A DNA stretch of 64,000 bases from Nitrospirales bacterium. Lineage in GTDB: Bacteria > Nitrospirota > Nitrospiria > Nitrospirales > UBA8639. Every line of letters starts with the position of its first letter. The stretch's first letter is position 1. This document shows positions 34,083 through 50,373 of this stretch, piece after piece. The translations under genes were made by a program, and so were the position numbers. The notes beneath the pieces are model-generated. The model was not told the DNA's origin. It did no database searches and saw only the letters and a list, made by a program, of their open reading frames with translations. The stretch lies in NCBI GenBank assembly GCA_963422365.1, contig OY729426.1, positions 832,001 to 896,000 on the forward strand, written 5' to 3'.

Positions 34083-34537
34083 ATTCTAAGGTTAGAGAGA
34101 TATGTCCATGAAAACAAGGTGCTCGTTTTTGAAAGAGTGAGCTTTGTTCCTTTGCTATGCTCAGGGCGAGCATCTTCGGCTCACAGCACGACAAAGGGCG
34201 GTTCAGCCTGACAGTCATCCTCAACATCTGCTTTTTAGGTGTTCCTTGGTTTGAGCGCAGCGCCTGCCCTGAGCAACGTGAAGGGAAAAATCTCGTCTTT
34301 GCTGAATGAAAGGCCTCTTTTCAGGTAGGGGATCCGTTTTTGAGATCCTGCGCTCTTCTCATGCCGAGAAACAATCCTTGGATCTGTCGCGGCGCTGTCT
34401 CATGGCGTCTTCGGAGCAACATCAAACGGGTCAACCCAATGATCCAGTTCGGATGTCTGTTGCCGACAAGTGACTTGATAGCATAACTCTTTACACAATA
34501 GAATTTGTACTCAACCCTTGAAAAAGGAGAAGAGTAG

Positions 34538-34800
34538 GCTCGCATCAATGTCATGATTGAGGAAGAAATTTTACAAGAGGTCAATCACGCCGCAGCGGAA
34601 GAAAAGCTGAGTCGCAGTGCGTTACTTTGAGAAGGCGGCACGTTGGTACCTAGAGACACAGAGGTTGGAAAAAGAAGCCGTTGAACGCAAGCAACGGATG
34701 TAAAAAGCCGCTGTGAATATGGACGGACTGGCAAACAAAATTCGGCAAATGGGGTGGAGTCGGAACCATCCGCCGGGTTCGTGACCAGCGAACAGGAACG
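34538..34800 (+). pseudogene. Decayed ribbon-helix-helix (CopG/VapB-like) antitoxin
   Basis: ARINVMIEEEILQEVNHAAAEEKLSRSALL* after an AAGGAG RBS; start codon damaged, early stop. Confidence 0.7.
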
Positions 34801-34805
34801 AAACG

Positions 34806-35264
34806 ATGATTGCCGCGTATCATGCCGGCTACGTCGTCGATGCCTCTGTCGGAGTGAAATGGGTTGTTCGGAAACGGGAAGCCGATCGTGAAGCCACCTT
34901 GTTTTTGAGACAACATTATATAAAAGAAGAACGCGATTGATGGTGCGGAACGATTTCTGTTGGAAGTGCCCAACGCCATCAAACCCAGCGGAAAGGTCAC
35001 GAAAAAAGTATTGGCCTGCTCACGACACTGGCCGACCTGGAGATGCAGGTGGAACGACATACTTACGCCGTGCTGCGGAAGGCCAATGCCGTTGCGTGGG
35101 CCTACAACCTCACGTGGTACGACGCCGTCTACGTGGCCCTGGCCCCGAGATTGTAGGATTCCCCTGTGTCAGGGGCAGATGAAGCACTGCTCCGAAAAAT
35201 GAAAGGTCACAGCATCGTGCTCAGGATCAAGGAATTGGCGTTTCAATACCATGTCTTATCTTAA
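34806..35264 (+). pseudogene. Decayed PIN-domain (VapC-like) toxin
   Basis: YVVDASVGVKW, LLEVPNA, LTWYDAVYVALA and ADEAL spread over several frames. Confidence 0.8.
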
Positions 35265-37494
35265 GATGCCTTCAACGCAATCAAAACGCTACCTAGCGCA
35301 TGTTCGTCAAAAGGATGGCGTTTCTTTTGAGGAGCATGATCTGGAAAAACATTTGCGTGAAGTTGCCAGGGGTGCTGAAAAATTCTCCGAAAATTTTGGA
35401 AGCTCGGATTGGGGATTTCTTGCAGGGTTGTGGCATGACCTGGGGAAATATAGCGTGGAATTTCAGCGTTACATCAAGTCCGTGTCTGGTTACGACGCCG
35501 AAGCACATCTTGAAGGGCCAGTTGGTCGAGTTGACCACTCGACGGCTGGGGCACAGTACGCAGTAGACCAATTCGGGCTACATGGTCGGATATTAGCGTA
35601 TCTCATTGCCGGCCATCACACCGGACTGCCAGATTGGCACACAAGTGAAACCGCAGGCACGGCGTTAAAAGTACGCTTGGACGATAGCAGTCATTTGAAA
35701 CGTACCCTCAGCCAGGCAATTCCTCCCGAGATTCTTTCTCAACCGAAACCGACCAGCGCCCTGCTCGGCAAGGCTGGGGGCTTCGCCTTGTGGGTACGCA
35801 TGTTGTTTTCGTGTCTGGTGGATGCGGATTTTCTCGATACCGAAGCATTTATGGACATGGACAAGGCGGCGCAGCGGATCAATACTCCGACGCCCACGGA
35901 CTTGCTGCCGCGTTTCAATACCTACATGGAAGAGCAATTTTCACACGCTCCACCTACGCGCGTGAATCATATCAGAGCCAGAGTGCTCCAGCAGTGCCGG
36001 AATAAGGCCCATGAAGCGCCGGGGATGTTTTCGTTGACCGTTCCTACTGGCGGCGGCAAAACACTGTCAAGTCTTGCCTTTGCTCTGGAACATGCGGCTA
36101 TCCATGGAAAGCGGCGGATTATTTATGCCATTCCCTATGCCAGCATTATTGAGCAAACCGCAAACGTTTTCCGGGACATATTCCCCGATTCGGTGATCGA
36201 ACACCACAGCAACCTCGACCCCGATAAGGAAACAGCAAAAAGTCGTTTGGCAACAGAAAATTGGGATGCACCCGTGATCGTGACCACCAACGTCCAGTTC
36301 TTCGAGTCGCTATTTGCCGCCAAGACGAGTCGTTGCCGCAAATTGCACAACATCGTGGATAGTGTTGTTATATTGGATGAAGCCCAGCTATTGCCGCCCG
36401 AGTTTCTGCAACCGATTCTCGATGTGATGAATCTGCTGGTCCGTCACTACGGCGTGACCTTCGTATTATCGACGGCCACCCAACCGGCGCTGGGCACATT
36501 AAAAACTTTTCAGCAGACAATTCGTGGTCTTGACCATATGCGCGAAATCATTGACGACCCAGATACATTGTATCGTGACCTGGAGCGCATTGCCGTTTCC
36601 ATTCCGGACGACTTCCGGCAACCGCAGAATTGGGACGAAATCACGCGGCAAATCTTGCAGCATTCGTCTGTCCTCACGGTGGTCAACTCCCGCGCTGACG
36701 CGCGTGAACTGCACCAACATATGCCTGAGGGGACCATACACTTGTCGGCCCTTATGTGTGGAGAGCACCGCTCGCGTGTCATTATCGATATCAAACAGCG
36801 ATTGCGTGCTGGTGAAGCTGTACGCGTAGTGAGTACGCAGTTGGTAGAGGCAGGGGTTGATGTGGATTTTCCCGTGGTGTACCGCGCACTCGCGGGGCTG
36901 GATTCGATCGCGCAAGCCGCCGGCCGCTGTAACCGTGAGGGCAAGCTGGAACGCGGTGAAGTGATTGTGTTTGTCCCGCCTAAACCCGCACCGCCGGGTC
37001 CTCTGCGGCGTGCTGCGGAGACGACCGTCTCGTTGCTGTCAGGGTCTTCCGACCACACACTGATGCCGGACTTGTTCTCTCTCTACTTCAAGCATTTCTA
37101 TAGTAAGCAATCGCTCGACACACATGGCATCACCGACTTACTTACGCCCCAGGGAGGTAACGACGATCCGTTGAAAGTGCAGTTTCGTACCGCGGCCCAG
37201 CGTTTCCGGCTCATTGACGAGTCGGGCTATCGCAGCATCCTGGTACGGTATGGCGACAGTCCGGGATTGCTTGGCCGTTTGCAGAAAAAAGGGCCGGAGC
37301 GCTGGCTGATGCGTAAACTCCAGCGCTACACCGTATCCCTGCCGGAATATCAATTCCAAAAATTGCTGGCCAGCGGCGACGTATCTGAAATCTATTCCGG
37401 CATATTTGCGCAGACTGCGGACGTGCTGTATCACCTACAGCTTGGGATATTGTTGGACGACGTCAACCCCGATCCGAGCGATTTGATTAGTTAG
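35251..37494 (+). CDS. cas3: Cas3 HD nuclease-helicase, type I-C
   Basis: HDLGK, LVDADFLDT, PTGGGKT, DEAQ, QAAGRCNREG. Confidence 0.97.
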   Translation: MSYLKMPSTQSKRYLAHVRQKDGVSFEEHDLEKHLREVARGAEKFSENFGSSDWGFLAGLWHDLGKYSVEFQRYIKSVSGYDAEAHLEGPVGRVDHSTAGAQYAVDQFGLHGRILAYLIAGHHTGLPDWHTSETAGTALKVRLDDSSHLKRTLSQAIPPEILSQPKPTSALLGKAGGFALWVRMLFSCLVDADFLDTEAFMDMDKAAQRINTPTPTDLLPRFNTYMEEQFSHAPPTRVNHIRARVLQQCRNKAHEAPGMFSLTVPTGGGKTLSSLAFALEHAAIHGKRRIIYAIPYASIIEQTANVFRDIFPDSVIEHHSNLDPDKETAKSRLATENWDAPVIVTTNVQFFESLFAAKTSRCRKLHNIVDSVVILDEAQLLPPEFLQPILDVMNLLVRHYGVTFVLSTATQPALGTLKTFQQTIRGLDHMREIIDDPDTLYRDLERIAVSIPDDFRQPQNWDEITRQILQHSSVLTVVNSRADARELHQHMPEGTIHLSALMCGEHRSRVIIDIKQRLRAGEAVRVVSTQLVEAGVDVDFPVVYRALAGLDSIAQAAGRCNREGKLERGEVIVFVPPKPAPPGPLRRAAETTVSLLSGSSDHTLMPDLFSLYFKHFYSKQSLDTHGITDLLTPQGGNDDPLKVQFRTAAQRFRLIDESGYRSILVRYGDSPGLLGRLQKKGPERWLMRKLQRYTVSLPEYQFQKLLASGDVSEIYSGIFAQTADVLYHLQLGILLDDVNPDPSDLIS

Positions 37495-37504
37495 GCTTGA
37501 AGAC

Positions 37505-37533
37505 TTGACATGAGCTAAGTGTGATTCTATATT
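37505..37533 (+). promoter_or_regulatory. sigma70 promoter for cas5-cas8c-cas7
   Basis: TTGACA (37505-10), 17-nt spacer, TATATT (37528-33). Confidence 0.8.
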
Positions 37534-37548
37534 AATTTTCATTGTCTT

Positions 37549-37626
37549 ATAGCACTATTTCAGTGAGGATTGAAACCATTGTCTTATAGCACCTGACCTC
37601 CACTCAGTCCTTGGATGAGTGGAGGT
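37549..37626 (+). ncRNA. Predicted crRNA-like regulatory RNA (pseudo-repeat, 16-nt promoter-matching spacer, 3' hairpin)
   Basis: CACT-atttc-AGTG hairpin followed by AGGATTGAAAC (last 11 nt of the array repeat); 37577-92 is identical to 37540-55; 11-bp hairpin 37596-37626. Confidence 0.75.
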
Positions 37627-37642
37627 TAAGTCGGGAGGACCA

Positions 37643-38368
37643 ATGAAAACCTATTGTCTTGAAGTCAGGGGTGACTTCGCCTGCTTCACACGACCTGAAA
37701 TGAAAGTCGAGCGCGTCAGCTATGACGTGATGACACCCTCGGCGGCTCGGGCCATTTTTGAGGCGATTCTCTGGAAACCGGCGATATGCTGGCAGGTGAG
37801 CAGGATCGAGGTGCTCAGCCCCATCAAGTGGATCAATCTGAGACGTAATGAAGTCGGTGGTGTTGCTTCGACGCGCAATATCGAAAGCGCGATGAGGTCC
37901 GGCACGGGGCAACTGGGCATGTATATAGAGGACGAGCGTCAACAGCGTGCTGGGTTGTTGCTGCGCGACGTGAGATACCGTCTCCATGCGTCGTTTGAGT
38001 TGCGCGACCCCAGCGTGCATAAGACGAATTTTCCACATCTAAGCAAACGAACGGTGAATGCTGGCGAGACCGATATGGATAACGAGCCGAATCAGGCAGT
38101 GAAATTCATGACGATGTTCGAGCGCCGTGCAAGTAAAGGGCAGTGCGTGAATCAGCCATATCTGGGCTGCCGGGAGTTTGCGGCGGATTTTTGGCTCGTG
38201 GAGCCGGGAGATTCACCAGCGCAACCGATCTCCGAGACACGCGAGTTGGGCTATATGCTGTATGACCTGGACTATCGTAGCCCCGCCACTCCCCCCCCGC
38301 TCTTTTTTCGAGCCAGCTTGATGAACGGCGTGCTCAACGTTCCGACCTGGGAGGAGGTGCGAGGATGA
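37643..38368 (+). CDS. cas5: Cas5c (Cas5d), crRNA-processing subunit
   Basis: GDFACFTRPEMKVERVSYDVMTPSAAR, QPYLGCREF; GGGAGG RBS before ATG 37643. Confidence 0.96.
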   Translation: MKTYCLEVRGDFACFTRPEMKVERVSYDVMTPSAARAIFEAILWKPAICWQVSRIEVLSPIKWINLRRNEVGGVASTRNIESAMRSGTGQLGMYIEDERQQRAGLLLRDVRYRLHASFELRDPSVHKTNFPHLSKRTVNAGETDMDNEPNQAVKFMTMFERRASKGQCVNQPYLGCREFAADFWLVEPGDSPAQPISETRELGYMLYDLDYRSPATPPPLFFRASLMNGVLNVPTWEEVRG

Positions 38369-40101
38369 TTTTGCAAGCGCTCTACGATTACTACGAACGC
38401 AAAAGCGCTGACCCGGAAGCTGGTTTGGCTCAGCCGGGTTTTGAGTGGAAAGAGATTCCTTTCATCGTCGAAATCGACACGCACGGAAACCCGATACAGA
38501 TTGAAGACACGCGTGAGGGAGAAGGTAAGAGAAAACGGGCGAAGGCGTTTCGGGTTCCGCAAGGTGTGAAGAAAACTTCCGGTGTGGTCGCCAATCTGCT
38601 CTGGGATAATGCGGCCTACGTCTTGGGTGTAGCAAAGGGGAAACCGAAGCGAGTTGAAGAACAACGTCAAGCATTCATCGCTAAAATCGAGGCACTGCCA
38701 ACCCCGGCGCGGAATGACGCGGGCGTGCAAGCCGTGTTGCACTTCCTCCAACAGGCAAATACTGAATTGCTGTCACAATGGACTGAGTGGCAAGAGATTG
38801 TTGAGACGGTTCCGAACCTTACGTTCCGCTTACAGGGCGATATAGACCTTGTGTGCCAGCGGCAGGCAACGGTAGAAGCCATCAGGATGGAACAGGACAC
38901 AACGAGTACGAGCGGCCTGTGTCTTGTGACAGGCGAGACTGACGAAATCGAGCGTTTGCATACAGCAATCAAGGGCGTGTGGGGTGCGCAAACGTCGGGA
39001 GCCAACATCGTCTCATTCAATCTTGACGCCTTTAATTCCTACGGCAAAACACAGGGCGCAAACGCACCTGTCAGCAAACACGCCGCGTTTAGCTACACCA
39101 CCACCCTCAACCACCTGCTCCGCAAAGATTCGCCGCAACGTCTGCAAGTTGGAGGTGCCAGCGTCGTGTTCTGGGCGGATAGGCCAACGAATTGGGAAAC
39201 CCTGCCCGTCGATATTTTCGGGGAGCCGACCAAAGATGATCCCGACCGTAATGTCCGGGCCGTGAGGAGTCTCTACACGGCTCTCACGAATGGCGTATTT
39301 GAAACCGAAGAAGGCCAAGCAAGATTCTTCGCCCTCGGACTTGCTCCCAACGCAGCGCGGATTGCCGTCCGTTTCTGGCAGCACGGTACGGTGGCGGAAA
39401 TGGCCGGACGGATAAAGCAGCACTTTGACGATCTGACTATTGAACGCTCACCACGTGACCCGCCCTATCTTTCGTTGTTTCGTCTGCTGGTGTCTGTGGC
39501 GACACAAGGCAAGGCGGATAATATCCCGCCGAATCTCGGGGGTGAATTGATGCGCAGCCTTCTCGCTGGCCTTCCCTATCCACAGACCTTGCTTGCGGCT
39601 GCTGTGCGCCGTATTCGTGCCGAGCACGAAGTGACGTATGCTCGTGCTGCTTTGGTCAAAGCCTGCATCAATCGTGCGACACGGTATGCAACCACCAATA
39701 TTGAGGAGGAGCTAACAATGTCTCTGGATGAAGCCAATATAAACGTCGGCTATCGCTTGGGCCGATTGTTCGCAGTCCTGGAGAAAATCCAGGAAGAAGC
39801 GCATCCCGGCATCAATGCCACCATACGGGACCGGTTTTATGGAGCGGCGTCGAGTACGCCGGTCACGGTGTTTTCGACCTTGCTGAAGCTGAAAAACCAC
39901 CATCTCTCTAAATTAGAGAATCGTGGCCGGGCGGTGAATATGGAGAAGCGTATTGGCAATATCATGGAAGGGCTGAGTGATTTTCCTGCCCAATTACGGA
40001 TAGAAGACCAGGGGCGTTTTGCTATTGGCTACTACCACCAACGGCAAGATTTTTTCAAAACAACTGATTCAAACTCATCTGATGTAAAAGAAGGAGCATA
40101 A
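38365..40101 (+). CDS. cas8c: Cas8c (Csd1)
   Basis: [46 protein letters not shown]. Confidence 0.96.
39718..40101 (+). CDS. cas11: Cas11c small subunit from an internal in-frame start in cas8c
   Basis: GAGGAGGAG RBS then ATG (MSLDEAN...) at the position known for I-C Cas11. Confidence 0.75.
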
Positions 40102-40103
40102 CT

Positions 40104-40988
40104 ATGGGCATTGAGAATCGGTACGATTTTGTCCTGTTATTCGACGTGAAGGACGGCAACCCCAACGGTGATCCTGACGCGGGCAATCTCCCGCGCGTCG
40201 ATGCCGAGACCGGGCGCGGTCTGGTGACTGATGTGAGCTTGAAACGCAAGGTCCGCAACTACGTTGGGATAGTGAAAGCGGAACAGCCGCCGTTTGAAAT
40301 CTACGTCAAGGAAAAGGCGATCCTCAACAAACAGCACGAACGCGCGTATGAGGCTATCGGGTCCAGTGACGCACTGAAAGGTGACGACAAAAAGCGGAAA
40401 GGCGGTGACAAGGTAGGCGAGGCACGGGCCTGGATGTGCAAAAACTTCTACGATGTGCGGACTTTTGGCGCGGTCATGTCCACAGGTGTCAATTGCGGTC
40501 AAGTCCGTGGTCCCGTTCAACTCACGTTCGCACGTTCGGTTGATCCTATTGTTGCCCAGGAACATTCGATTACTCGGATGGCGGTGGCAACAGAAGCGGA
40601 AGCTACTAAACAAGAGGGGGATAATCGTACGATGGGCCGTAAGCATACCGTGCCGTATGGTCTGTACATGGCGCGCGGCTTTGTGTCGTCACACCTGGCA
40701 ACGCAAACCGGCTTCTCCGACGACGACCTCGCACTCTTGTGGGAAGCGCTCAGCAACATGTTTGAACATGATCGTTCAGCCGCCCGCGGAGAAATGGCGA
40801 CCCGAGGCTTATATGTGTTCAAACATGACTCGCAACTGGGCAACGCGCATGCGCATGACCTTTTTATGCGTATTCAACCCAAGTTGAAAGAAGACGTCAT
40901 CGTGCCGCGTGATTTTGACCATTATCGCGTTTCGGCCGATACCACGGATTTTCCCAAAGGCGTGGAGTTGATCCAAATAGTGACGTGA
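40104..40988 (+). CDS. cas7: Cas7 (Csd2)
   Basis: [34 protein letters not shown]. Confidence 0.96.
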
Positions 40989-40992
40989 GCGT

Positions 40993-41661
40993 ATGGATTT
41001 CTCTGATAGTGCTCCGCTTTCTGGTAGAGTGAGTTTTGAAACGGAGGAGAGCAACCTTATCATGATCTCCGCCCTGGAACATTGGAGTTATTGTCCGCGG
41101 CAATGTGCGCTGATTCATGTCGAGCAAATATTTGATGAAAATCTGTACACGCTCCGTGGGCGAGCAGTTCACAAGCAGGTAGATGAGATTGAGTCAGTGG
41201 TTGAGCGTGGTGTCCGGGTCGAGCGCGCTTTGCCCCTTTGGAATCGAAGGCTTGGTTTGATAGGGAAAGCCGACGTTGTAGAATTTTACGGTGGGACGCC
41301 GTACCCTGTGGAATACAAGCACGGTTCTCGCCGCCAGCGTGAACACGATGACCTCCAACTCTGTGCGCAAGCGATGTGTTTAGAAGAAATGACAGGGCAA
41401 GCCGTGCCACGGGGCGTGATTTTTCACCACAAGTCTCGCCGCCGCAGGGAAGTTATCTTTACTCCAACCTTGAGACAGCAGGTCGAAGAGGCCATTGCAG
41501 CCATTCGGACGCTGTTGGCTGAAACAAGGCTCCCACCACCGGTCAATGATCAGCGATGTGAAAAGTGTTCGCTCAATGAATCATGTATGCCCCAGGTGAT
41601 TGAAGAGCGGAAGCATGAAAAACAGCTCCTTGCCGATCTGTTCCAGGTGGTAACCCCCTAG
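40993..41661 (+). CDS. cas4: Cas4
   Basis: YCPRQ, GKADVVE, PVEYK, QLCAQ, CxxCSLxxxC. Confidence 0.95.
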   Translation: MDFSDSAPLSGRVSFETEESNLIMISALEHWSYCPRQCALIHVEQIFDENLYTLRGRAVHKQVDEIESVVERGVRVERALPLWNRRLGLIGKADVVEFYGGTPYPVEYKHGSRRQREHDDLQLCAQAMCLEEMTGQAVPRGVIFHHKSRRRREVIFTPTLRQQVEEAIAAIRTLLAETRLPPPVNDQRCEKCSLNESCMPQVIEERKHEKQLLADLFQVVTP

Positions 41662-41670
41662 AGTAGGTTT

Positions 41671-42702
41671 ATGCACCAACTTCTTAATACCCTCTACATT
41701 ACCACGGAAGGCGCCTACATCCGCGCGGACCATGAAACATTGAAAGTGGAAGTGGAAAAAGAAACGAAGCTGCAAGTGCCGATTCACCATATTGGCAGTG
41801 TGGTGTGTTTCGGGGACGTGCTGATGAGTCCGGCGGCTATTCATCGGTGTGCGGGCGAAGGACGCTCCGTGGTCTGGCTTGATCGCAACGGTCGCTTTAA
41901 GGCGCGTGCGGAAGGCCCGGTCTCGGGAAACGTGTTGTTGCGTCGAGCCCAACATGCAGCCTCATTAAATCCAGTGGTCACGCTGAACATTGCGAGAAAT
42001 ATGGTGGCGGGAAAGGTCCAAAATGCTCGACAGGTTGTATTGCGTGGAGCAAGAGAAGCTACGCGAGAGGATTATGGTGTTGCGCTGCGAGACACGGCTA
42101 ACGCACTAGCCAGAACGGTTCAGCGCCTGCCTGCTTGTGAAGATCTAGACACCCTGAGAGGGCTTGAGGGTGAAGCGGCTCGTGTGTATTTCTCGACGTT
42201 TGACCGAATGGTCTCGGTTGATGAAGAAACCTTTAAGATGAATGGTCGAAGTCGCAGGCCGCCGGTAGATCCGTTGAATGCTATCTTATCCTTTCTCTAT
42301 GCCTTGTTGATGAATGACTGTGTGGCGGCGGCTGAGGGCGTAGGGCTTGATCCGCAGGTCGGCTTTCTGCATGCCATCCGGCCTGGGCGCGCTGCGTTTG
42401 CTTTGGACTTGATGGAAGAATTTCGCTGTATTTTAGCTGATCGGTTGGCGTTGACCTTGATCAACCGGCGGCAAATCACCGCACCAGATTTTCTGGAGCG
42501 GCCTGGTGGGGCTGTGCATTTACACGATGATAGTCGAAAGGCTGTCATCGTGGCGTATCAGAAACGCAAGCAAGAAGAAATCACGCATCCTATGCTGGAT
42601 CAAAAAATGCCGTTTGGGGTGGTTCCGCATGTGCAGGCACGGTTACTGGCTCGGGTGCTCAGGAAGGATATGGAGGCCTATATCCCATTTACCATCCGGT
42701 AG
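41671..42702 (+). CDS. cas1: Cas1, type I-C
   Basis: [37 protein letters not shown]. Confidence 0.96.
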
Positions 42703-42712
42703 GAATACTCCC

Positions 42713-43003
42713 ATGCACGTCTTAGTGACCTATGATGTCTCGACAGAGACGGCTGCAGGAAAAAGGCGGTTGCGGAAGATTGCCGAAGCGTGTCAGAACT
42801 TTGGGCAGCGCGTGCAAAAATCGGTGTTTGAATGTGCGGTCAACGAGATGCAATACGAGGAATTGACTCGGCGGTTAGTCAACATCATGGATGAAAAGGA
42901 GGATAGCCTACGGTTGTACCGGCTTGCACAGCCGAAGGAGCAATACGTGAAAGTTTTTGGAATTGACACAGCGGTGGATTTTGAGGGGCCTCTGGTGTGG
43001 TAA
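42713..43003 (+). CDS. cas2: Cas2
   Basis: [24 protein letters not shown]. Confidence 0.95.
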
Positions 43004-43182
43004 ACGCGAACCTGAAGCGCTTGCAAAATCCTAGGAGATTCGCGGGTAAGAGAACATGTTGATTTCATGAGGAGTTTGAGCATGTGGATCAATAAACAGG
43101 ATGTAAACGATGAGATGCGAAAAGGAGGTTCGCCGGATGAATGCGTTAACTGTCTGAAAGTTCGACAGATTTTTGTGATACA
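43004..43182 (+). promoter_or_regulatory. CRISPR leader
   Basis: AT-richer region with GCGAACC (43006), GATTCGC (43037) and GGTTCGC (43127) inverted motifs typical of I-C leaders. Confidence 0.8.
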
Positions 43183-46100
43183 GTAGCGCCCACCTTTCGA
43201 GGTGGGCGAGGATTGAAACTCCGCACAAAAGGCGATGACGTCGGCATCATGTTCCGTAGCGCCCACCTTTCGAGGTGGGCGAGGATTGAAACGGGCAGAC
43301 ATTGTGGCCGTATTGACGGAATTCCGATTGTAGCGCCCACCTTTCGAGGTGGGCGAGGATTGAAACAAGAATTTTACAAATAACAAGAAAAACAAAAATG
43401 TAGCGCCCACCTTTCGAGGTGGGCGAGGATTGAAACTCCTCGCCCGTGCGCTATGCCTCTGGTGAGCAGCGTAGCGCCCACCTTTCGAGGTGGGCGAGGA
43501 TTGAAACGAAGAGCTCATCGCCGCCCGGCGGCACCGCCACAACGTAGCGCCCACCTTTCGAGGTGGGCGAGGATTGAAACAGCGTGGCCGCCACGCTACC
43601 AGACAAAACAAGTATCGTAGCGCCCACCTTTCGAGGTGGGCGAGGATTGAAACACGTCATCATTGAGCCGTGCCGTATTGATCGAGCGTAGCGCCCACCT
43701 TTCGAGGTGGGCGAGGATTGAAACTCGATCCCCGGCGCAATGCCGGCGAGGATCGACAGTAGCGCCCACCTTTCGAGGTGGGCGAGGATTGAAACTTTTT
43801 GGCGCCGAGCGAACGCGGCGGACAAAATAGTAGCGCCCACCTTTCGAGGTGGGCGAGGATTGAAACAGTCTGTCGCCCGCGCTCTGATGCGCGATGATGC
43901 GCGTAGCGCCCACCTTTCGAGGTGGGCGAGGATTGAAACTCAAAACGCAAGCAACGATAAGCCGGCGAACAACAGTAGCGCCCACCTTTCGAGGTGGGCG
44001 AGGATTGAAACATGTGCCCGAAGGAGAACGCGAATATGTCGCGTCAGTAGCGCCCACCTTTCGAGGTGGGCGAGGATTGAAACATCGCGCCGCACGAGTT
44101 GCTGTGCCGCGTGTACCGTAGCGCCCACCTTTCGAGGTGGGCGAGGATTGAAACATTTTTTCGCCGACGTCGGTGTTGCGCGAGGCCGAGGTAGCGCCCA
44201 CCTTTCGAGGTGGGCGAGGATTGAAACCAAAACCGTGCGGGACTTCACGGCGCGGGTGTTCCGTAGCGCCCACCTTTCGAGGTGGGCGAGGATTGAAACA
44301 CCGGTCACCTCCGGCAAAAATATCGAGATCTCCGGTAGCGCCCACCTTTCGAGGTGGGCGAGGATTGAAACTAGATCGCGGGCGTGGCGGCATCTCCGCC
44401 TCTTGCGTAGCGCCCACCTTTCGAGGTGGGCGAGGATTGAAACATCCACCAATCCCAAGAGCCGCATCTCATATGTGGTAGCGCCCACCTTTCGAGGTGG
44501 GCGAGGATTGAAACAGACTTGGCGGACGACCGTGCAATCCGGCGGCGCCGTAGCGCCCACCTTTCGAGGTGGGCGAGGATTGAAACGCGCTCTCCCTCTG
44601 GCACGTCGAGATCATCCATCGTAGCGCCCACCTTTCGAGGTGGGCGAGGATTGAAACGCCAATGCGAAAGCCCAGGCCTGGTGGCGCGTGCGGTAGCGCC
44701 CACCTTTCGAGGTGGGCGAGGATTGAAACAAAAAAATCGTGCACGATACATTTTTATCGATCTCGTAGCGCCCACCTTTCGAGGTGGGCGAGGATTGAAA
44801 CTATTTTTCCCAATTTGGGTGAGCGAAAAAATATTGTCGTAGCGCCCACCTTTCGAGGTGGGCGAGGATTGAAACTAAAAAGTGAATACCATTTAATCCT
44901 CTCGCCCGATCGTAGCGCCCACCTTTCGAGGTGGGCGAGGATTGAAACGAGAGCTCGCCGGTTTGCCCCACCGGCCGGCGGTCGTAGCGCCCACCTTTCG
45001 AGGTGGGCGAGGATTGAAACGACCAAGCATGGTACGATCAAAAACGCGCGGCCGCGTAGCGCCCACCTTTCGAGGTGGGCGAGGATTGAAACAGATTGTG
45101 ACTCAATCGTCGGATCCAATCCCTCAAAGTAGCGCCCACCTTTCGAGGTGGGCGAGGATTGAAACTGGTACGTCGAGATCATCCATCATGCGATTGATCG
45201 TAGCGCCCACCTTTCGAGGTGGGCGAGGATTGAAACAACAGGGCCGGGCGGGCGGAGGCCGCGAGGAACACCGTAGCGCCCACCTTTCGAGGTGGGCGAG
45301 GATTGAAACACTTTTGTCCCGACGGCCGCTGCGGCAATGCTATTGTAGCGCCCACCTTTCGAGGTGGGCGAGGATTGAAACCTTGATGGCCTCCGGCACC
45401 GCGGAGGCTGACACGAGTAGCGCCCACCTTTCGAGGTGGGCGAGGATTGAAACGTCTGGGGCAATCCGTGCTCTTCGGAGGGCTGTCCAGTAGCGCCCAC
45501 CTTTCGAGGTGGGCGAGGATTGAAACCTCGCAGCGCGCCTTTCCTGGTGTCCCACAGCGCCGTAGCGCCCACCTTTCGAGGTGGGCGAGGATTGAAACGG
45601 ATCCATTTAAATCCTCGCCGCACTGGCACAGTGTAGCGCCCACCTTTCGAGGTGGGCGAGGATTGAAACACGACCGCGCAAATCGAGATGATCACCGCAC
45701 TCAGGGTAGCGCCCACCTTTCGAGGTGGGCGAGGATTGAAACACACAAGCACTCGCCGGCAATACCGCGATCCTTATTGTAGCGCCCACCTTTCGAGGTG
45801 GGCGAGGATTGAAACGTTGCTTGGCCTCGATGCCGGCAAAGCCAAGGATAGTAGCGCCCACCTTTCGAGGTGGGCGAGGATTGAAACCAGAGCCCGGCGA
45901 GAGCCACCCAAATGTATCCTTGGTAGCGCCCACCTTTCGAGGTGGGCGAGGATTGAAACTTAAATGCGAAAGCCCAGGCCTGGTGGCGCGTGCGGTAGCG
46001 CCCACCTTTCGAGGTGGGCGAGGATTGAAACATCGTCTCTCGGGCGCTCACCGTATCATGCAGATGTAGCGCCCACCTTTCGAGGTGGGCGAGGATTGAA

Positions 46101-49100
46101 ACACGGTGTTTCGGGTGGTGGGGCGGAAAAAATAAAAAGTAGCGCCCACCTTTCGAGGTGGGCGAGGATTGAAACCCTAGAGAGATACCCTAATGGCAAA
46201 ACTACTTATAGTAGCGCCCACCTTTCGAGGTGGGCGAGGATTGAAACTGAATAGCGCCTGATCATAATCGCGGCTGGTCTCAAGTGTAGCGCCCACCTTT
46301 CGAGGTGGGCGAGGATTGAAACTACCACCAGCGTCGCCGCGCCGCATGGGTTGACAGTAGCGCCCACCTTTCGAGGTGGGCGAGGATTGAAACATACTCG
46401 CCGTGGCCGTTGACCTCGGCGACCAAAGTAGCGCCCACCTTTCGAGGTGGGCGAGGATTGAAACATTAACAACAACGATGGGTCCCCGAGCCGCACGCAG
46501 TAGCGCCCACCTTTCGAGGTGGGCGAGGATTGAAACCCCCGCTGGTGGCGGTGCGGAACAGCCCGAGGGTGGTAGCGCCCACCTTTCGAGGTGGGCGAGG
46601 ATTGAAACTATGTGGACCGCCGCTGGGACGGCACGCAGCTCTTGTAGCGCCCACCTTTCGAGGTGGGCGAGGATTGAAACGGCAAATCCGGACGCGATGT
46701 GATGGGCTCAGCCTCGTAGCGCCCACCTTTCGAGGTGGGCGAGGATTGAAACCAATCCGGCGGCGCCAATGTGTCGGCCTCGCGCGAGTAGCGCCCACCT
46801 TTCGAGGTGGGCGAGGATTGAAACGGGTGCAAGATGAGATTAATCGCAAGCGCCATGGGGTAGCGCCCACCTTTCGAGGTGGGCGAGGATTGAAACTCCC
46901 ACGCACCCTGATCGCGATACTCGATCACAGCATGTAGCGCCCACCTTTCGAGGTGGGCGAGGATTGAAACGAGCAATTGGCCCTCCTCGCCGCCGAGGCG
47001 GTGCCGCGTAGCGCCCACCTTTCGAGGTGGGCGAGGATTGAAACGCGTAATGCGCCGAGTGGGAGCGCTCGTGCACGATGTAGCGCCCACCTTTCGAGGT
47101 GGGCGAGGATTGAAACGTGGCATCCTGATACACATATGATTGCAGGATGAGCGTAGCGCCCACCTTTCGAGGTGGGCGAGGATTGAAACTGCACTAGCCG
47201 CCGGCGTGGCCGATCCGCCGATGGGTAGCGCCCACCTTTCGAGGTGGGCGAGGATTGAAACGTTTGCGCGTGGCGCTCACGCGCACGGCATTGATCGTAG
47301 CGCCCACCTTTCGAGGTGGGCGAGGATTGAAACATCTCGGTCGTGACCTCCTCGTAGCTGGCGAGCGGTAGCGCCCACCTTTCGAGGTGGGCGAGGATTG
47401 AAACCAGGAGCTCCGCGAGGCCAGCCCCGTGGATACGGGGGTAGCGCCCACCTTTCGAGGTGGGCGAGGATTGAAACACCGTCCGTGCCCGGCTCCCCGC
47501 GATTGGCGAGTAGTAGCGCCCACCTTTCGAGGTGGGCGAGGATTGAAACTCCTCCTTGCGTCCGTCATGAGAGGCTGAGGCACGCGTAGCGCCCACCTTT
47601 CGAGGTGGGCGAGGATTGAAACCGATCTCGGTGCGAGTAGATAAATTTATCCATGTCGTAGCGCCCACCTTTCGAGGTGGGCGAGGATTGAAACGCGCCC
47701 CAGTTGATGGTGATCGATTGCATGTTGGGCGTAGCGCCCACCTTTCGAGGTGGGCGAGGATTGAAACGCAATCGAGGCAATCGCCACAGCCGGCCTGATG
47801 ATGTAGCGCCCACCTTTCGAGGTGGGCGAGGATTGAAACATCGTTAGCATTGCAACCATTGTTTTTATGATTATCGTAGCGCCCACCTTTCGAGGTGGGC
47901 GAGGATTGAAACGCGGCATCGGCGCGCCGCCGAATCTCACCGATGCCGTAGCGCCCACCTTTCGAGGTGGGCGAGGATTGAAACTTGCAAAAAATCGAAA
48001 GCCACGAAAAGCTATGCTGTAGCGCCCACCTTTCGAGGTGGGCGAGGATTGAAACCGCGAGAGATGAGCCGGGCGGCCCGCACCAGGCGAAGTAGCGCCC
48101 ACCTTTCGAGGTGGGCGAGGATTGAAACGCGTCGATGCCAGGTTGGACGAGGCGTGGAAAGAGAGTAGCGCCCACCTTTCGAGGTGGGCGAGGATTGAAA
48201 CATGTGATCAAATTTAGCATCAATAATTTTTTGCGGTAGCGCCCACCTTTCGAGGTGGGCGAGGATTGAAACCGAGATCCCATTCCGCTGGCGGCAATAT
48301 TTGGCCTGTAGCGCCCACCTTTCGAGGTGGGCGAGGATTGAAACAGCGCAAACGCCGTTGCCCGCGTGGTGAAAATCGGATGTAGCGCCCACCTTTCGAG
48401 GTGGGCGAGGATTGAAACTCCGCGACGGGAGGCGCGGCGGCTTGCCTTAGCCGGTAGCGCCCACCTTTCGAGGTGGGCGAGGATTGAAACCAAGCTGGTC
48501 GCGCACGGAGGCAGGCGCTCAGCCATCGTAGCGCCCACCTTTCGAGGTGGGCGAGGATTGAAACGAGAAGATAGAGGCCACGCTGGGCGTGATCCCTGAG
48601 TAGCGCCCACCTTTCGAGGTGGGCGAGGATTGAAACAGGTCCATCAGCAGGCATCTGTGCACGGATGGCCGCGTAGCGCCCACCTTTCGAGGTGGGCGAG
48701 GATTGAAACAAAAATCCTGTTGCCGACCACGAGCCCCGCGAGCGCCGTAGCGCCCACCTTTCGAGGTGGGCGAGGATTGAAACCACTGTTGCCCGGCATT
48801 GGCGGCGATCGAGCTGTAGTAGCGCCTACCTTTCGAGGTGGGCGAGGATTGAAACACTACGCCGGACAGCACGAGCACCCTCACGCTCGAGGTAGCGCCC
48901 ACCTTTCGAGGTGGGCGAGGATTGAAACATGGCATTCATTCTCAGCAGTTCATTTGTTCCGGAGTAGCGCCCACCTTTCGAGGTGGGCGAGGATTGAAAC
49001 ATGGATACTCTTACCTATCATCATGAGCCAACTGGCGTAGCGCCCACCTTTCGAGGTGGGCGAGGATTGAAACGGTAGACTTCGGACGAGACCAATCGAT

Positions 49101-50373
49101 CTGATCAAGGTAGCGCCCACCTTTCGAGGTGGGCGAGGATTGAAACTTGAGCGGCAGATCCATCTCTATCGTAAGCCACAGTGTAGCGCCCACCTTTCGA
49201 GGTGGGCGAGGATTGAAACAACGGCCACGGCGAGTATGCCATGACCACTGTGAGCGTAGCGCCCACCTTTCGAGGTGGGCGAGGATTGAAACATACCTGG
49301 TGCCTGTGCCGCTTACGGTGATCGCCGGTAGCGCCCACCTTTCGAGGTGGGCGAGGATTGAAACCGAGCCATCCGCGCACTGGATCACCACGCGCTGGCG
49401 TAGCGCCCACCTTTCGAGGTGGGCGAGGATTGAAACTCGCCGCCGGTGCTGGCGGATCAGGAGGCGCCGGGTAGCGCCCACCTTTCGAGGTGGGCGAGGA
49501 TTGAAACTATACGTACACCAACCTATTCTCTTGGCGCAGGAAGTAGCGCCCACCTTTCGAGGTGGGCGAGGATTGAAACCGATTGATTCCGGTTTTTCTC
49601 CTTTCAGCGGATACGTAGCGCCCACCTTTCGAGGTGGGCGAGGATTGAAACAAAGCTGATCTCGCGGCCGGCCTCGCGCTGCGGCGTGTAGCGCCCACCT
49701 TTCGAGGTGGGCGAGGATTGAAACAAGCGCCGAGAGATCGACTCCTGGCTGCTCAGCCCGTAGCGCCCACCTTTCGAGGTGGGCGAGGATTGAAACCGCG
49801 ACCGCCGGCCGGTGGGACAAACCGGTGAGCGTAGCGCCCACCTTTCGAGGTGGGCGAGGATTGAAACCTCGGCCGCACAGCCAATGGCTGCATCCACAGC
49901 ATCGTAGCGCCCACCTTTCGAGGTGGGCGAGGATTGAAACAAAGCTGATCTCGCGGCCGGCCTCGCGCTGCGGCGTGTAGCGCCCACCTTTCGAGGTGGG
50001 CGAGGATTGAAACAAGCGCCGAGAGATCGACTCCTGGCTGCTCAGCCCGTAGCGCCCACCTTTCGAGGTGGGCGAGGATTGAAACCTCGGCCGCACAGCC
50101 AATGGCTGCATCCACAGCATCGTAGCGCCCACCTTTCGAGGTGGGCGAGGATTGAAACAGTTTCGGGGCCGAGGATTTCCTGGCGCGCGACCTCGTAGCG
50201 CCCACCTTTCGAGGTGGGCGAGGATTGAAACGCAAAGAGGGTCACACACAACATAAGATGTTGAGGTAGCGCCCACCTTTCGAGGTGGGCGAGGATTGAA
50301 ACCGCGACCGCCGGCCGGTGGGACAAACCGGTGAGCGTAGCGCCCACCTTTCGAGGTGGGCGAGGATTGAAAC
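43183..50373 (+). CRISPR. CRISPR array; 37-nt repeat GTAGCGCCCACCTTTCGAGGTGGGCGAGGATTGAAAC; 100 repeats / 99 spacers by manual count
   Basis: Near-invariant repeat (one C>T variant at about 48819), 8-bp hairpin, spacers of about 33-38 nt. Confidence 0.99.

Follow-up and report, generated by a model that had tools for sequence, protein, structure and literature searches.

The 148-bp gap between cas3 and cas5c in a type I-C CRISPR-Cas locus of a Nitrospirales bacterium contains a cassette by which, from sequence comparison, the Cascade genes probably (we put the probability at roughly 80%) repress themselves in the manner of CreR and crlRNAs. The original prediction had proposed such a Cascade autorepressor, and the homologues described below support this reading, of which the processing of the guide and the repression itself are what we infer. 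The window, that is the whole stretch of DNA analysed, is 64,000 nt long; coordinates refer to it and the features described lie on its forward strand. It carries a complete type I-C system, with cas3, cas5c, cas8c, cas7c, cas4 and cas1c all matching NCBIfam families over cut-off. The end of cas3, the HD nuclease-helicase gene (35251-37494; TIGR01587 and TIGR01596 over cut-off), directly abuts the cassette. Downstream lie cas5c (37643-38368), cas8c (38365-40101) and cas7c (40104-40988), for which TIGR01876, TIGR01863 and TIGR02589 match over cut-off, and these three (37643-40988) would be the Cascade genes under control of the cassette. The Cas5c protein matches solved I-C Cas5 chains (best E 7e-59). 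From its sequence we take an ORF ending at 43003 to be cas2-like. The CRISPR array (43183-50373) has 99 exact 37-nt repeats and spacers that are mostly 34-37 nt long.

The cassette is a discrete insert of 139 bp (37495-37633; 40% G+C) that runs from the cas3 stop to the cas5c ribosome-binding site (37634-37638). In the locus that is sister to the window in the Cas5c tree, L017, the cas3 stop is followed by the same 9-nt spacer with the same ribosome-binding site and nothing between, so that the window differs by the insert as a whole. There is no ORF in the gap. A run X5 contig (37406-38000) and a run X6 contig (37554-37704) have 0 differences from the window, and as far as these contigs show the cassette is not an assembly slip, although run X5 may be the source sample. 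Record 6 of run X5 comes from a related strain (12 differences in 89 nt) that departs from the window sequence exactly at the cas3 stop, 37494; its loose end resembles the start of the insert in another locus, L023, and the strain may be a fourth carrier.

All five elements of the original prediction are present at the positions predicted. The near-consensus sigma-70-type promoter (37505-37533) consists of TTGACA (37505-37510), 17 nt and TATATT (37528-37533), agrees with the consensus at 11 of 12 positions and is the best of six promoter-like sites in the 8.8 kb from 34500 to 43300; shuffled sequences gave 5.9 sites at a looser cut-off. Transcription would start at about 37540-37541. A second promoter with the target 37-46 bp upstream of its start, the CRISIS arrangement, was rejected because no such site is among the six found. 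At the expected start site lies the second element, a TTT PAM (37537-37539) followed by a 16-nt target, or protospacer (37540-37555), that overlaps the expected start site as well as the pseudo-repeat. The overlap with the latter reaches into its 5' arm and comprises 7 nt, with which the target ends and the pseudo-repeat begins. TTT has been described as an alternative, weaker I-C PAM in Legionella (Rao et al., 10.1101/137067). The suggestion that a register shift of 1 nt might supply a TTC PAM did not survive the comparison of homologues, in which the mismatches at positions 6 and 12 fit the unshifted register and the homologue L024 has TTC in that same register.

The third element, the shrunken repeat (psiR1, 37549-37576, 28 nt), has the arms CACT (37553-37556) and AGTG (37562-37565), a 4-bp stem that ends directly before an 11-nt 5' handle (37566-37576). 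This handle is the same, at 11/11 positions, as the 3' end of the 37-nt array repeat and has just two further copies outside the array in the whole genome. The best Rfam match within 37300-37800 is the CRISPR repeat model CRISPR-DR9 on exactly 37549-37576, a weak match (E 0.024; 21.7 bits, below the gathering score of 45). The Cas5c cut is predicted between 37565 and 37566. The handle is followed by the guide (psiS, 37577-37595), which comprises the fourth element, an exact second copy of the target 16-mer in spacer position (37577-37592), and 3 nt before the hairpin. In the 2.5-Mb genome this 16-mer occurs exactly twice, 37 nt apart, with no extension of the identity on either side, and when the guide is read as a full-length spacer 19 of 36 positions match the target. 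The guide gene itself is preceded by AAC and thus has no PAM beside it.

The fifth element, a perfect 11-bp hairpin just before the cas5c ribosome-binding site, was also found, but its description as a structure before that site seems incomplete, since the better reading is that it forms the 3' end of the guide RNA. The hairpin region (37596-37632) has a stem of 37596-37606 with 37616-37626, a loop at 37607-37615 and a degenerate handle-like tail (37623-37632); hairpin and tail stop 1 nt short of the ribosome-binding site, the leader has a z-score of -2.8, and nearly the same stem is present in L024. A terminator was considered for this hairpin and rejected, since it has no U-tract and is not called as one. 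By analogy with published I-C crlRNAs, which are 48-50 nt long, have an 11-nt handle and end in the loop of a 3' hairpin (Shu et al., 10.1101/2024.12.27.630466), the 3' end of the guide RNA is predicted to lie in the loop. The distance from the 5' cut to the loop is 42-50 nt in the window, 40-50 nt in L024 and 41-50 nt in L023, so that all three cassettes fit the published size. In the class as a whole, either a 3' hairpin or a second pseudo-repeat sets the end of an RNA of 48-57 nt.

Homologous cassettes were found in L023 (a Nitrospira MAG) and L024 (a Ca. Entotheonella MAG), whose Cas5c proteins are 81-82% identical to that of the window. Such a comparison had been suggested along with the original prediction, and it showed that the handle, a matching guide and the PAM are kept, that paired positions have changed together and that positions 6 and 12 have drifted. 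Both homologues retain the -35 element, PAM, target, handle and guide. The -35 element and the handle are invariant in all three cassettes, as are the first five guide bases, while the DNA between handle and -35 element has diverged in the three hosts and the mean column identity of the alignment is 73%. At the same place as the TTT of the window, L023 has TTT and L024 has TTC. The -10 element is good in L024 and weak in L023. The psiR1 stem of L023 has 6 bp in the canonical register, with C-G as its fourth pair against T-A in the window, and is the best predicted fold; the stem of L024 is made by the target itself and stops 2 nt before the handle.

Target and guide match over 16, 16 and 14 nt in the three cassettes, and are identical in all three at positions 1-5, 7-11, 13 and 14. 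Two of these positions have changed jointly: position 7 is C in both copies in the window and T in both in L023 and L024, and position 10 likewise varies between A/A and G/G. Up to position 14, target and guide differ only at position 6 (L024) and position 12 (L023 and L024); L024 also has mismatches at 15-16. Cascade leaves positions 6 and 12 unpaired (Shu et al., 10.1101/2024.12.27.630466), which is the pattern expected of a guide bound by Cas7. The three carriers all belong to one Cas5c clade and are not independent, and a single event may account for the position-12 mismatch in L023 and L024. A joint change between the window and L023 is also seen at position 6 (T/T against A/A), and position 12 matches in the window. 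This suggests some copying between the two copies, so that joint change is weaker proof of selection. Copying is not sufficient, since position 10 of L024 has changed in both copies while the mismatches at 6 and 12 have been retained on either side of it.

In the proposed mechanism the internal promoter would start the cas5c-cas8c-cas7c transcript at about 37540 and Cas5c would cut its leader where the shrunken hairpin ends (37565/37566). The resulting piece of about 42-50 nt (37566 to about 37610-37615), made up of the 11-nt handle, the 16-nt guide and part of the 3' hairpin, would load Cascade. By analogy with the tested systems, both for the processing pattern and for repression without cleavage, Cascade would then occupy positions +1 to +16 next to the TTT, a PAM located 3 bp downstream of the -10 element, and block initiation in this cell. 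The duplex would be too short to license Cas3, and the promoter would thus be blocked, not cut. The guide gene would be spared because it is preceded by AAC and not by TTN. As there is no U-tract in the 3' hairpin, transcription should continue into cas5c and the precursor of the guide should be the mRNA leader. The guide would thus be made from the transcript that it represses, which closes the loop. Surplus Cascade would shut this loop, and competition from crRNAs, presumably supplied by the array, or Cascade inhibitors such as anti-CRISPRs would open it.

Several observations count against the autorepressor. The 4-bp hairpin of psiR1 is not the best predicted fold (-2.3 against -4.3 kcal/mol), has a pair probability of about 0.15, and competes with a favoured fold that hides most of the handle by pairing. 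The TTT PAM is the weaker one, the -10 element of L023 is poor, the L024 stem is 2 nt off, and 9 of the 12 loci in the clade have no cassette. Some of the anatomy could also be explained if control were exerted mainly on the RNA, with Cas5c binding or cutting the leader at psiR1 or at the hairpin beside the ribosome-binding site and altering the stability or translation of the cas5c mRNA, or with the RNA acting as a decoy for Cas subunits, DNA binding then being secondary. We consider this improbable as the main mode of control. The hairpin and degenerate handle do end 1 nt before the ribosome-binding site, for which the leader fold predicts partial pairing, cleavage by Cas5c immediately 3' of such hairpins has been reported in vitro (Shu et al., 10.1101/2024.12.27.630466), and solitary I-C repeats can inhibit Cascade (RacrIC1, PMC10651486). 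Control of the RNA leaves the PAM, the seed match and the 6/12 pattern unexplained, however, the predicted pairing of the ribosome-binding site is barely altered after either cut, and in L023 the hairpin differs and precedes a small ORF rather than cas5c. An effect on the RNA may well act in addition to repression.

The small ORF in L023 (8742-8960) has 72 codons, is Cys-rich and lies between the guide and cas5c, with the 3' hairpin overlapping its likely ribosome-binding site; it is possibly a small cargo under the same control. Pfam searches with this ORF and with two ORFs upstream of cas3 found no family.

Marginally less probable again is that the cassette is a relic without function, left by an early tandem duplication that took in a short unit and the start of a repeat, and that gene conversion has kept the copies alike. 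The perfect 16/16 match in the window, which includes positions 6 and 12, and the joint change at the unpaired position 6 would be expected of such a relic, and the clade repeats begin with a sequence similar to guide positions 10-17. The duplication alone is not rare, as the genome has 26 exact repeats of at least 16 nt within 60 nt outside the array, and most relatives lack the insert. Conversion, however, would have erased the 6/12 mismatches that L024 has kept on either side of its jointly changed position 10, the handle and -35 element are invariant in three hosts despite the diverged DNA between them, and a TTY PAM is retained in 3/3. A chance origin of the layout is also unlikely, because the handle is rare outside the array and the layout recurs in two diverged genomes.

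The guide might instead serve to recognise a different gene or a mobile element, which would make the local match incidental; we regard this as very unlikely. Toxin or defence genes are frequently under the control of CreA and crlRNAs (PMC10120712; 10.1101/2024.12.27.630466), and L023 carries its 72-codon ORF behind the guide. Against this, elsewhere in the whole genome the guide has no match that extends past its first 10 nt, a TTN flank is absent from all 19 other seed matches of 9 nt, and no toxin-like ORF fits the 148-bp gap of the window. Least likely of all is an operator for a protein repressor formed by the repeats or by a palindrome at about 37558-37575: the best-folding stem there is an inverted repeat in the DNA and direct repeats near +1 are common operators, but the palindrome is not conserved in L023 or L024, the handle is the CRISPR repeat's own end and the mismatch pattern is that of a Cas7-bound guide.

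The distribution of the autorepressor cassette within its clade is patchy. In a Cas5c tree of 34 rows, in which row L040 is just 20% filled and the bootstrap is not fully settled, the sister of the window is L017 (support 98/97; Cas5c 90% identical), with its 9-bp junction. The enclosing clade (support 99/99) has the cassette in 3 of 12 rows, namely the window, L023 and L024. Its absence from the closest row to the window means that repeated loss or transfer is needed, and the tree does not say which. A search for a regulator elsewhere in the nine clade loci without the insert found no match above 11/14 in eight of them. In the ninth, L033, a divergent solitary handle and guide lie before cas3, about 2561 and 2435 bp upstream of cas5c, with a TTC PAM and mismatches at positions 6 and 12; from its sequence this unit appears to regulate the cas3 promoter. 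A DNA-pattern search of the phylum matched 37 of 401 genomes at one mismatch or fewer, and among 30 loci examined, out of a larger number of matches, the layout was present only in the window's own. Three exact pattern matches were found in viral sequences, 0/3 with the guide-target layout, and no viral contig matched the Cas5c patterns.

We also surveyed cas3-cas5c junctions across type I-C loci, in a sample that is neither random nor independent. The cas3-cas5c gap was shorter than 60 bp in 92 of the 145 unique cas5c junctions first examined. A scan for solitary handles in 197 unique junctions (244 loci), from which 5 duplicate or partial loci and 33 pattern-hit loci were excluded, identified 35 such handles in 32 loci. 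With neither the PAM nor the every-sixth-base rule imposed, 20 of the 35 had a match of at least 12/16 within 600 bp, and the PAM was TTC in 17 and TTT in 3. Position 6 matched in only 5 of these 20 and position 12 in 9, against 14-20 for the other positions. Random control guides reached 12/16 in 100 of 525 cases, 9 of those 100 with TTC or TTT. A wider scan of 288 unique junctions (338 loci), filtered for a TTN PAM, a 5-nt seed and 11/14 paired positions, returned 28 loci, against 0-3 when the guides were shuffled ten times. The 28 consist of 21 divergent units, 3 same-strand guides, 1 probable noise and 3 compact units of the window type. Judged from these sequences, type I-C loci commonly carry regulatory guides, and the compact layout with its overlap is rare (3/288) and, in this sample, confined to one clade. 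The original prediction had also called this compact layout unusual.

The probable noise is L074, rejected as a carrier: its handle is degenerate, its target lies in coding DNA at a distance of 1325 bp, and a hit of this kind falls within the null rate. The same-strand guides (L307, L333 and L351) lie before cas5c, with targets 206-491 bp upstream on the opposite strand and small ORFs or structured DNA between guide and target. In nine betaproteobacterial and other I-C loci with divergent mini-CRISPRs in the cas3-cas5c gap (L036, L044, L050, L051, L052, L057, L062, L123 and L125), a small hydrophobic ORF, by eye, often precedes cas5c; these are candidate CreTA-like modules. Four further loci (L045, L055, L130 and L131) have inserts of 700-800 bp upstream of cas5c that end, by eye, in a putative PIN-domain gene. 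The cas3-cas5c junction seems to be a cargo hotspot.

The repression of promoters by guide RNAs was introduced in the original prediction as a feature of other systems; for type I-C itself the class has already been described, as predicted CreR elements and as tested crlRNAs encoded before cas5c. The closest known systems are the I-C solitary repeat units of Shu et al. (10.1101/2024.12.27.630466), which give crlRNAs, lie directly before cas5c and are described from CRISIS, Nezha and Gabija loci. Their match of about 16 bp is tolerant at positions 6 and 12, repression is 4.8-60-fold, and AcrIC9 releases it. The cassette resembles these units in its subtype, its position between cas3 and cas5c, its one pseudo-repeat with an 11-nt handle, its guide of about 16 nt, the 6/12 mismatches of its family and a 3' hairpin spaced for an RNA of up to 50 nt. 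Unlike the tested units, it has no cargo between target and repeat unit, its PAM is TTT (TTC in L024), its target begins at the predicted start site, not 37-46 bp before the start, and its target overlaps the pseudo-repeat. In CRISIS immune cargo lies between the target and the repeat unit, whereas the starts of target and guide in the cassette are 37 nt apart and no ORF fits between them. Similarly, CreTA has a toxin gene under the repressed promoter, and the gap in the window has no ORF; an RNA toxin is possible by sequence.

Like CreR, the cassette is a toxin-free degenerate mini-CRISPR with a guide that partly matches the promoter of effector genes (Liu et al., 10.1101/2023.03.10.532045). 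CreR was tested in I-B, I-E and V-A, and predicted I-C elements are given in Fig. S7 of that preprint. The Salmonella CreR targets a site about 140 bp before casA, as opposed to the predicted start site in the cassette (10.1101/2023.03.10.532045), and neither a test of an I-C CreR nor a guide in the leader of the repressed cas mRNA that overlaps its target is described in the accessible part of Liu et al. (10.1101/2023.03.10.532045). Shmakov et al. (PMC10120712) found a mini-array in 7% of 1206 I-C loci. The cassette shares with these mini-arrays a conserved proximal repeat and a degraded distal repeat, a patchy distribution among relatives and a short seed match with a PAM in a cas promoter; the worked and tested cases are from I-B, I-D, I-E, I-F1 and V-A, and the word 'cas5' is absent from the main text (PMC10120712).

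The divergent I-C mini-CRISPRs of our own survey (21/288 junctions, among them L036, L080, L123 and L161) have the same handle, a TTC PAM, the 6/12 pattern and a target before cas5c. They are transcribed away from cas5c, at 46-322 bp from the target and often with a small ORF before cas5c, and their guide, unlike that of the cassette, lies outside the cas message. In the tracr-L system of type II-A a natural guide allows the effector to repress its own promoter through a short match, the effector being Cas9, of class 2, and the guide a separate tracrRNA transcript. The cassette would be similar in self-repression by a short match, with Cascade instead of Cas9. Solitary I-C elements are also known from viruses, and the Neisseria I-C CreA/R were used as queries in the Cracr preprint (10.1101/2024.10.29.618823); unlike viral Racr and Cracr, which are on mobile elements and away from the cas operon, the cassette is inside a chromosomal cas operon. 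No description of the overlap of target and pseudo-repeat was found in the literature covered, which took in a minority of the subscription journals and no preprint supplements, where it may be listed.

The array has several features of its own. Its leader-proximal spacers 1 and 2 (43220-43328) perfectly match the organism's own chromosome, at G000:C1:633852-633887 and 691110-691146. The spacer 1 match is within an ORF, which from its N-terminus looks like argininosuccinate synthase, and is flanked by AGG. The spacer 2 match has GAA at its 3' side, that is, it is a flipped TTC protospacer, and spacer flips have been described for I-C (Rao et al., 10.1101/137067). Among the self-matches in the organism's own genome, to which this analysis of protospacers was confined, this one flipped self-spacer points to TTC as the PAM of the window system. 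Both self-targets are without a usable PAM, which is expected for survivors in an active system. Spacer 51 has a 28-nt match at 771427-771454. Between 49400 and 50300, toward the distal end of the array, several spacers occur more than once, as recurring peptide stretches among the listed ORFs show, which suggests that parts of the array have been duplicated.

The cassette also carries hints of its origin. The foot of the psiR1 stem is CAC...GTG, like the repeats of L017, L020-L022, L024 and L028, and unlike the window array, which has CGC...GCG. This suggests that the pseudo-repeat predates the present array or arrived with the cassette. The resemblance of guide positions 10-17 to the 5' end of the repeats of the same loci would fit a duplication of the 9-nt leader end together with the repeat, later shaped by selection for pairing. 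We speculate, quite tentatively and with more doubt than confidence in the combination as a whole, that these roughly 140 bp make up a complete feedback module which the cas3-cas5c junction acquires or loses as a unit. A single 16-bp stretch would serve as start region, Cascade target and arm of the hairpin cut by Cas5c. Each cas5c-cas8c-cas7c message would yield one repressor guide, released by the first protein that it encodes, and the same cut would mature the mRNA. The guide may stem from a duplication of the leader-repeat junction without spacer acquisition.

RNA-guided autorepression of Cascade is already known, and the I-C RNA anatomy has been tested, in the literature covered only as control of cargo defence genes. 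What differs here from the tested cases is the cargo-free minimal geometry, with a target that is at the predicted start site and overlaps the pseudo-repeat. The cassette would be a ready 140-bp feedback part for I-C tools. Natural controls exist in the sister locus L017, which has a Cas5c 90% identical and no cassette, and in the homologues with a TTT or TTC PAM and matches of 14-16 nt. The cassette thus makes testable whether I-C Cascade sets its own level, what effect the cutting of its own mRNA leader by Cas5c has, and how a self-targeting guide originates.
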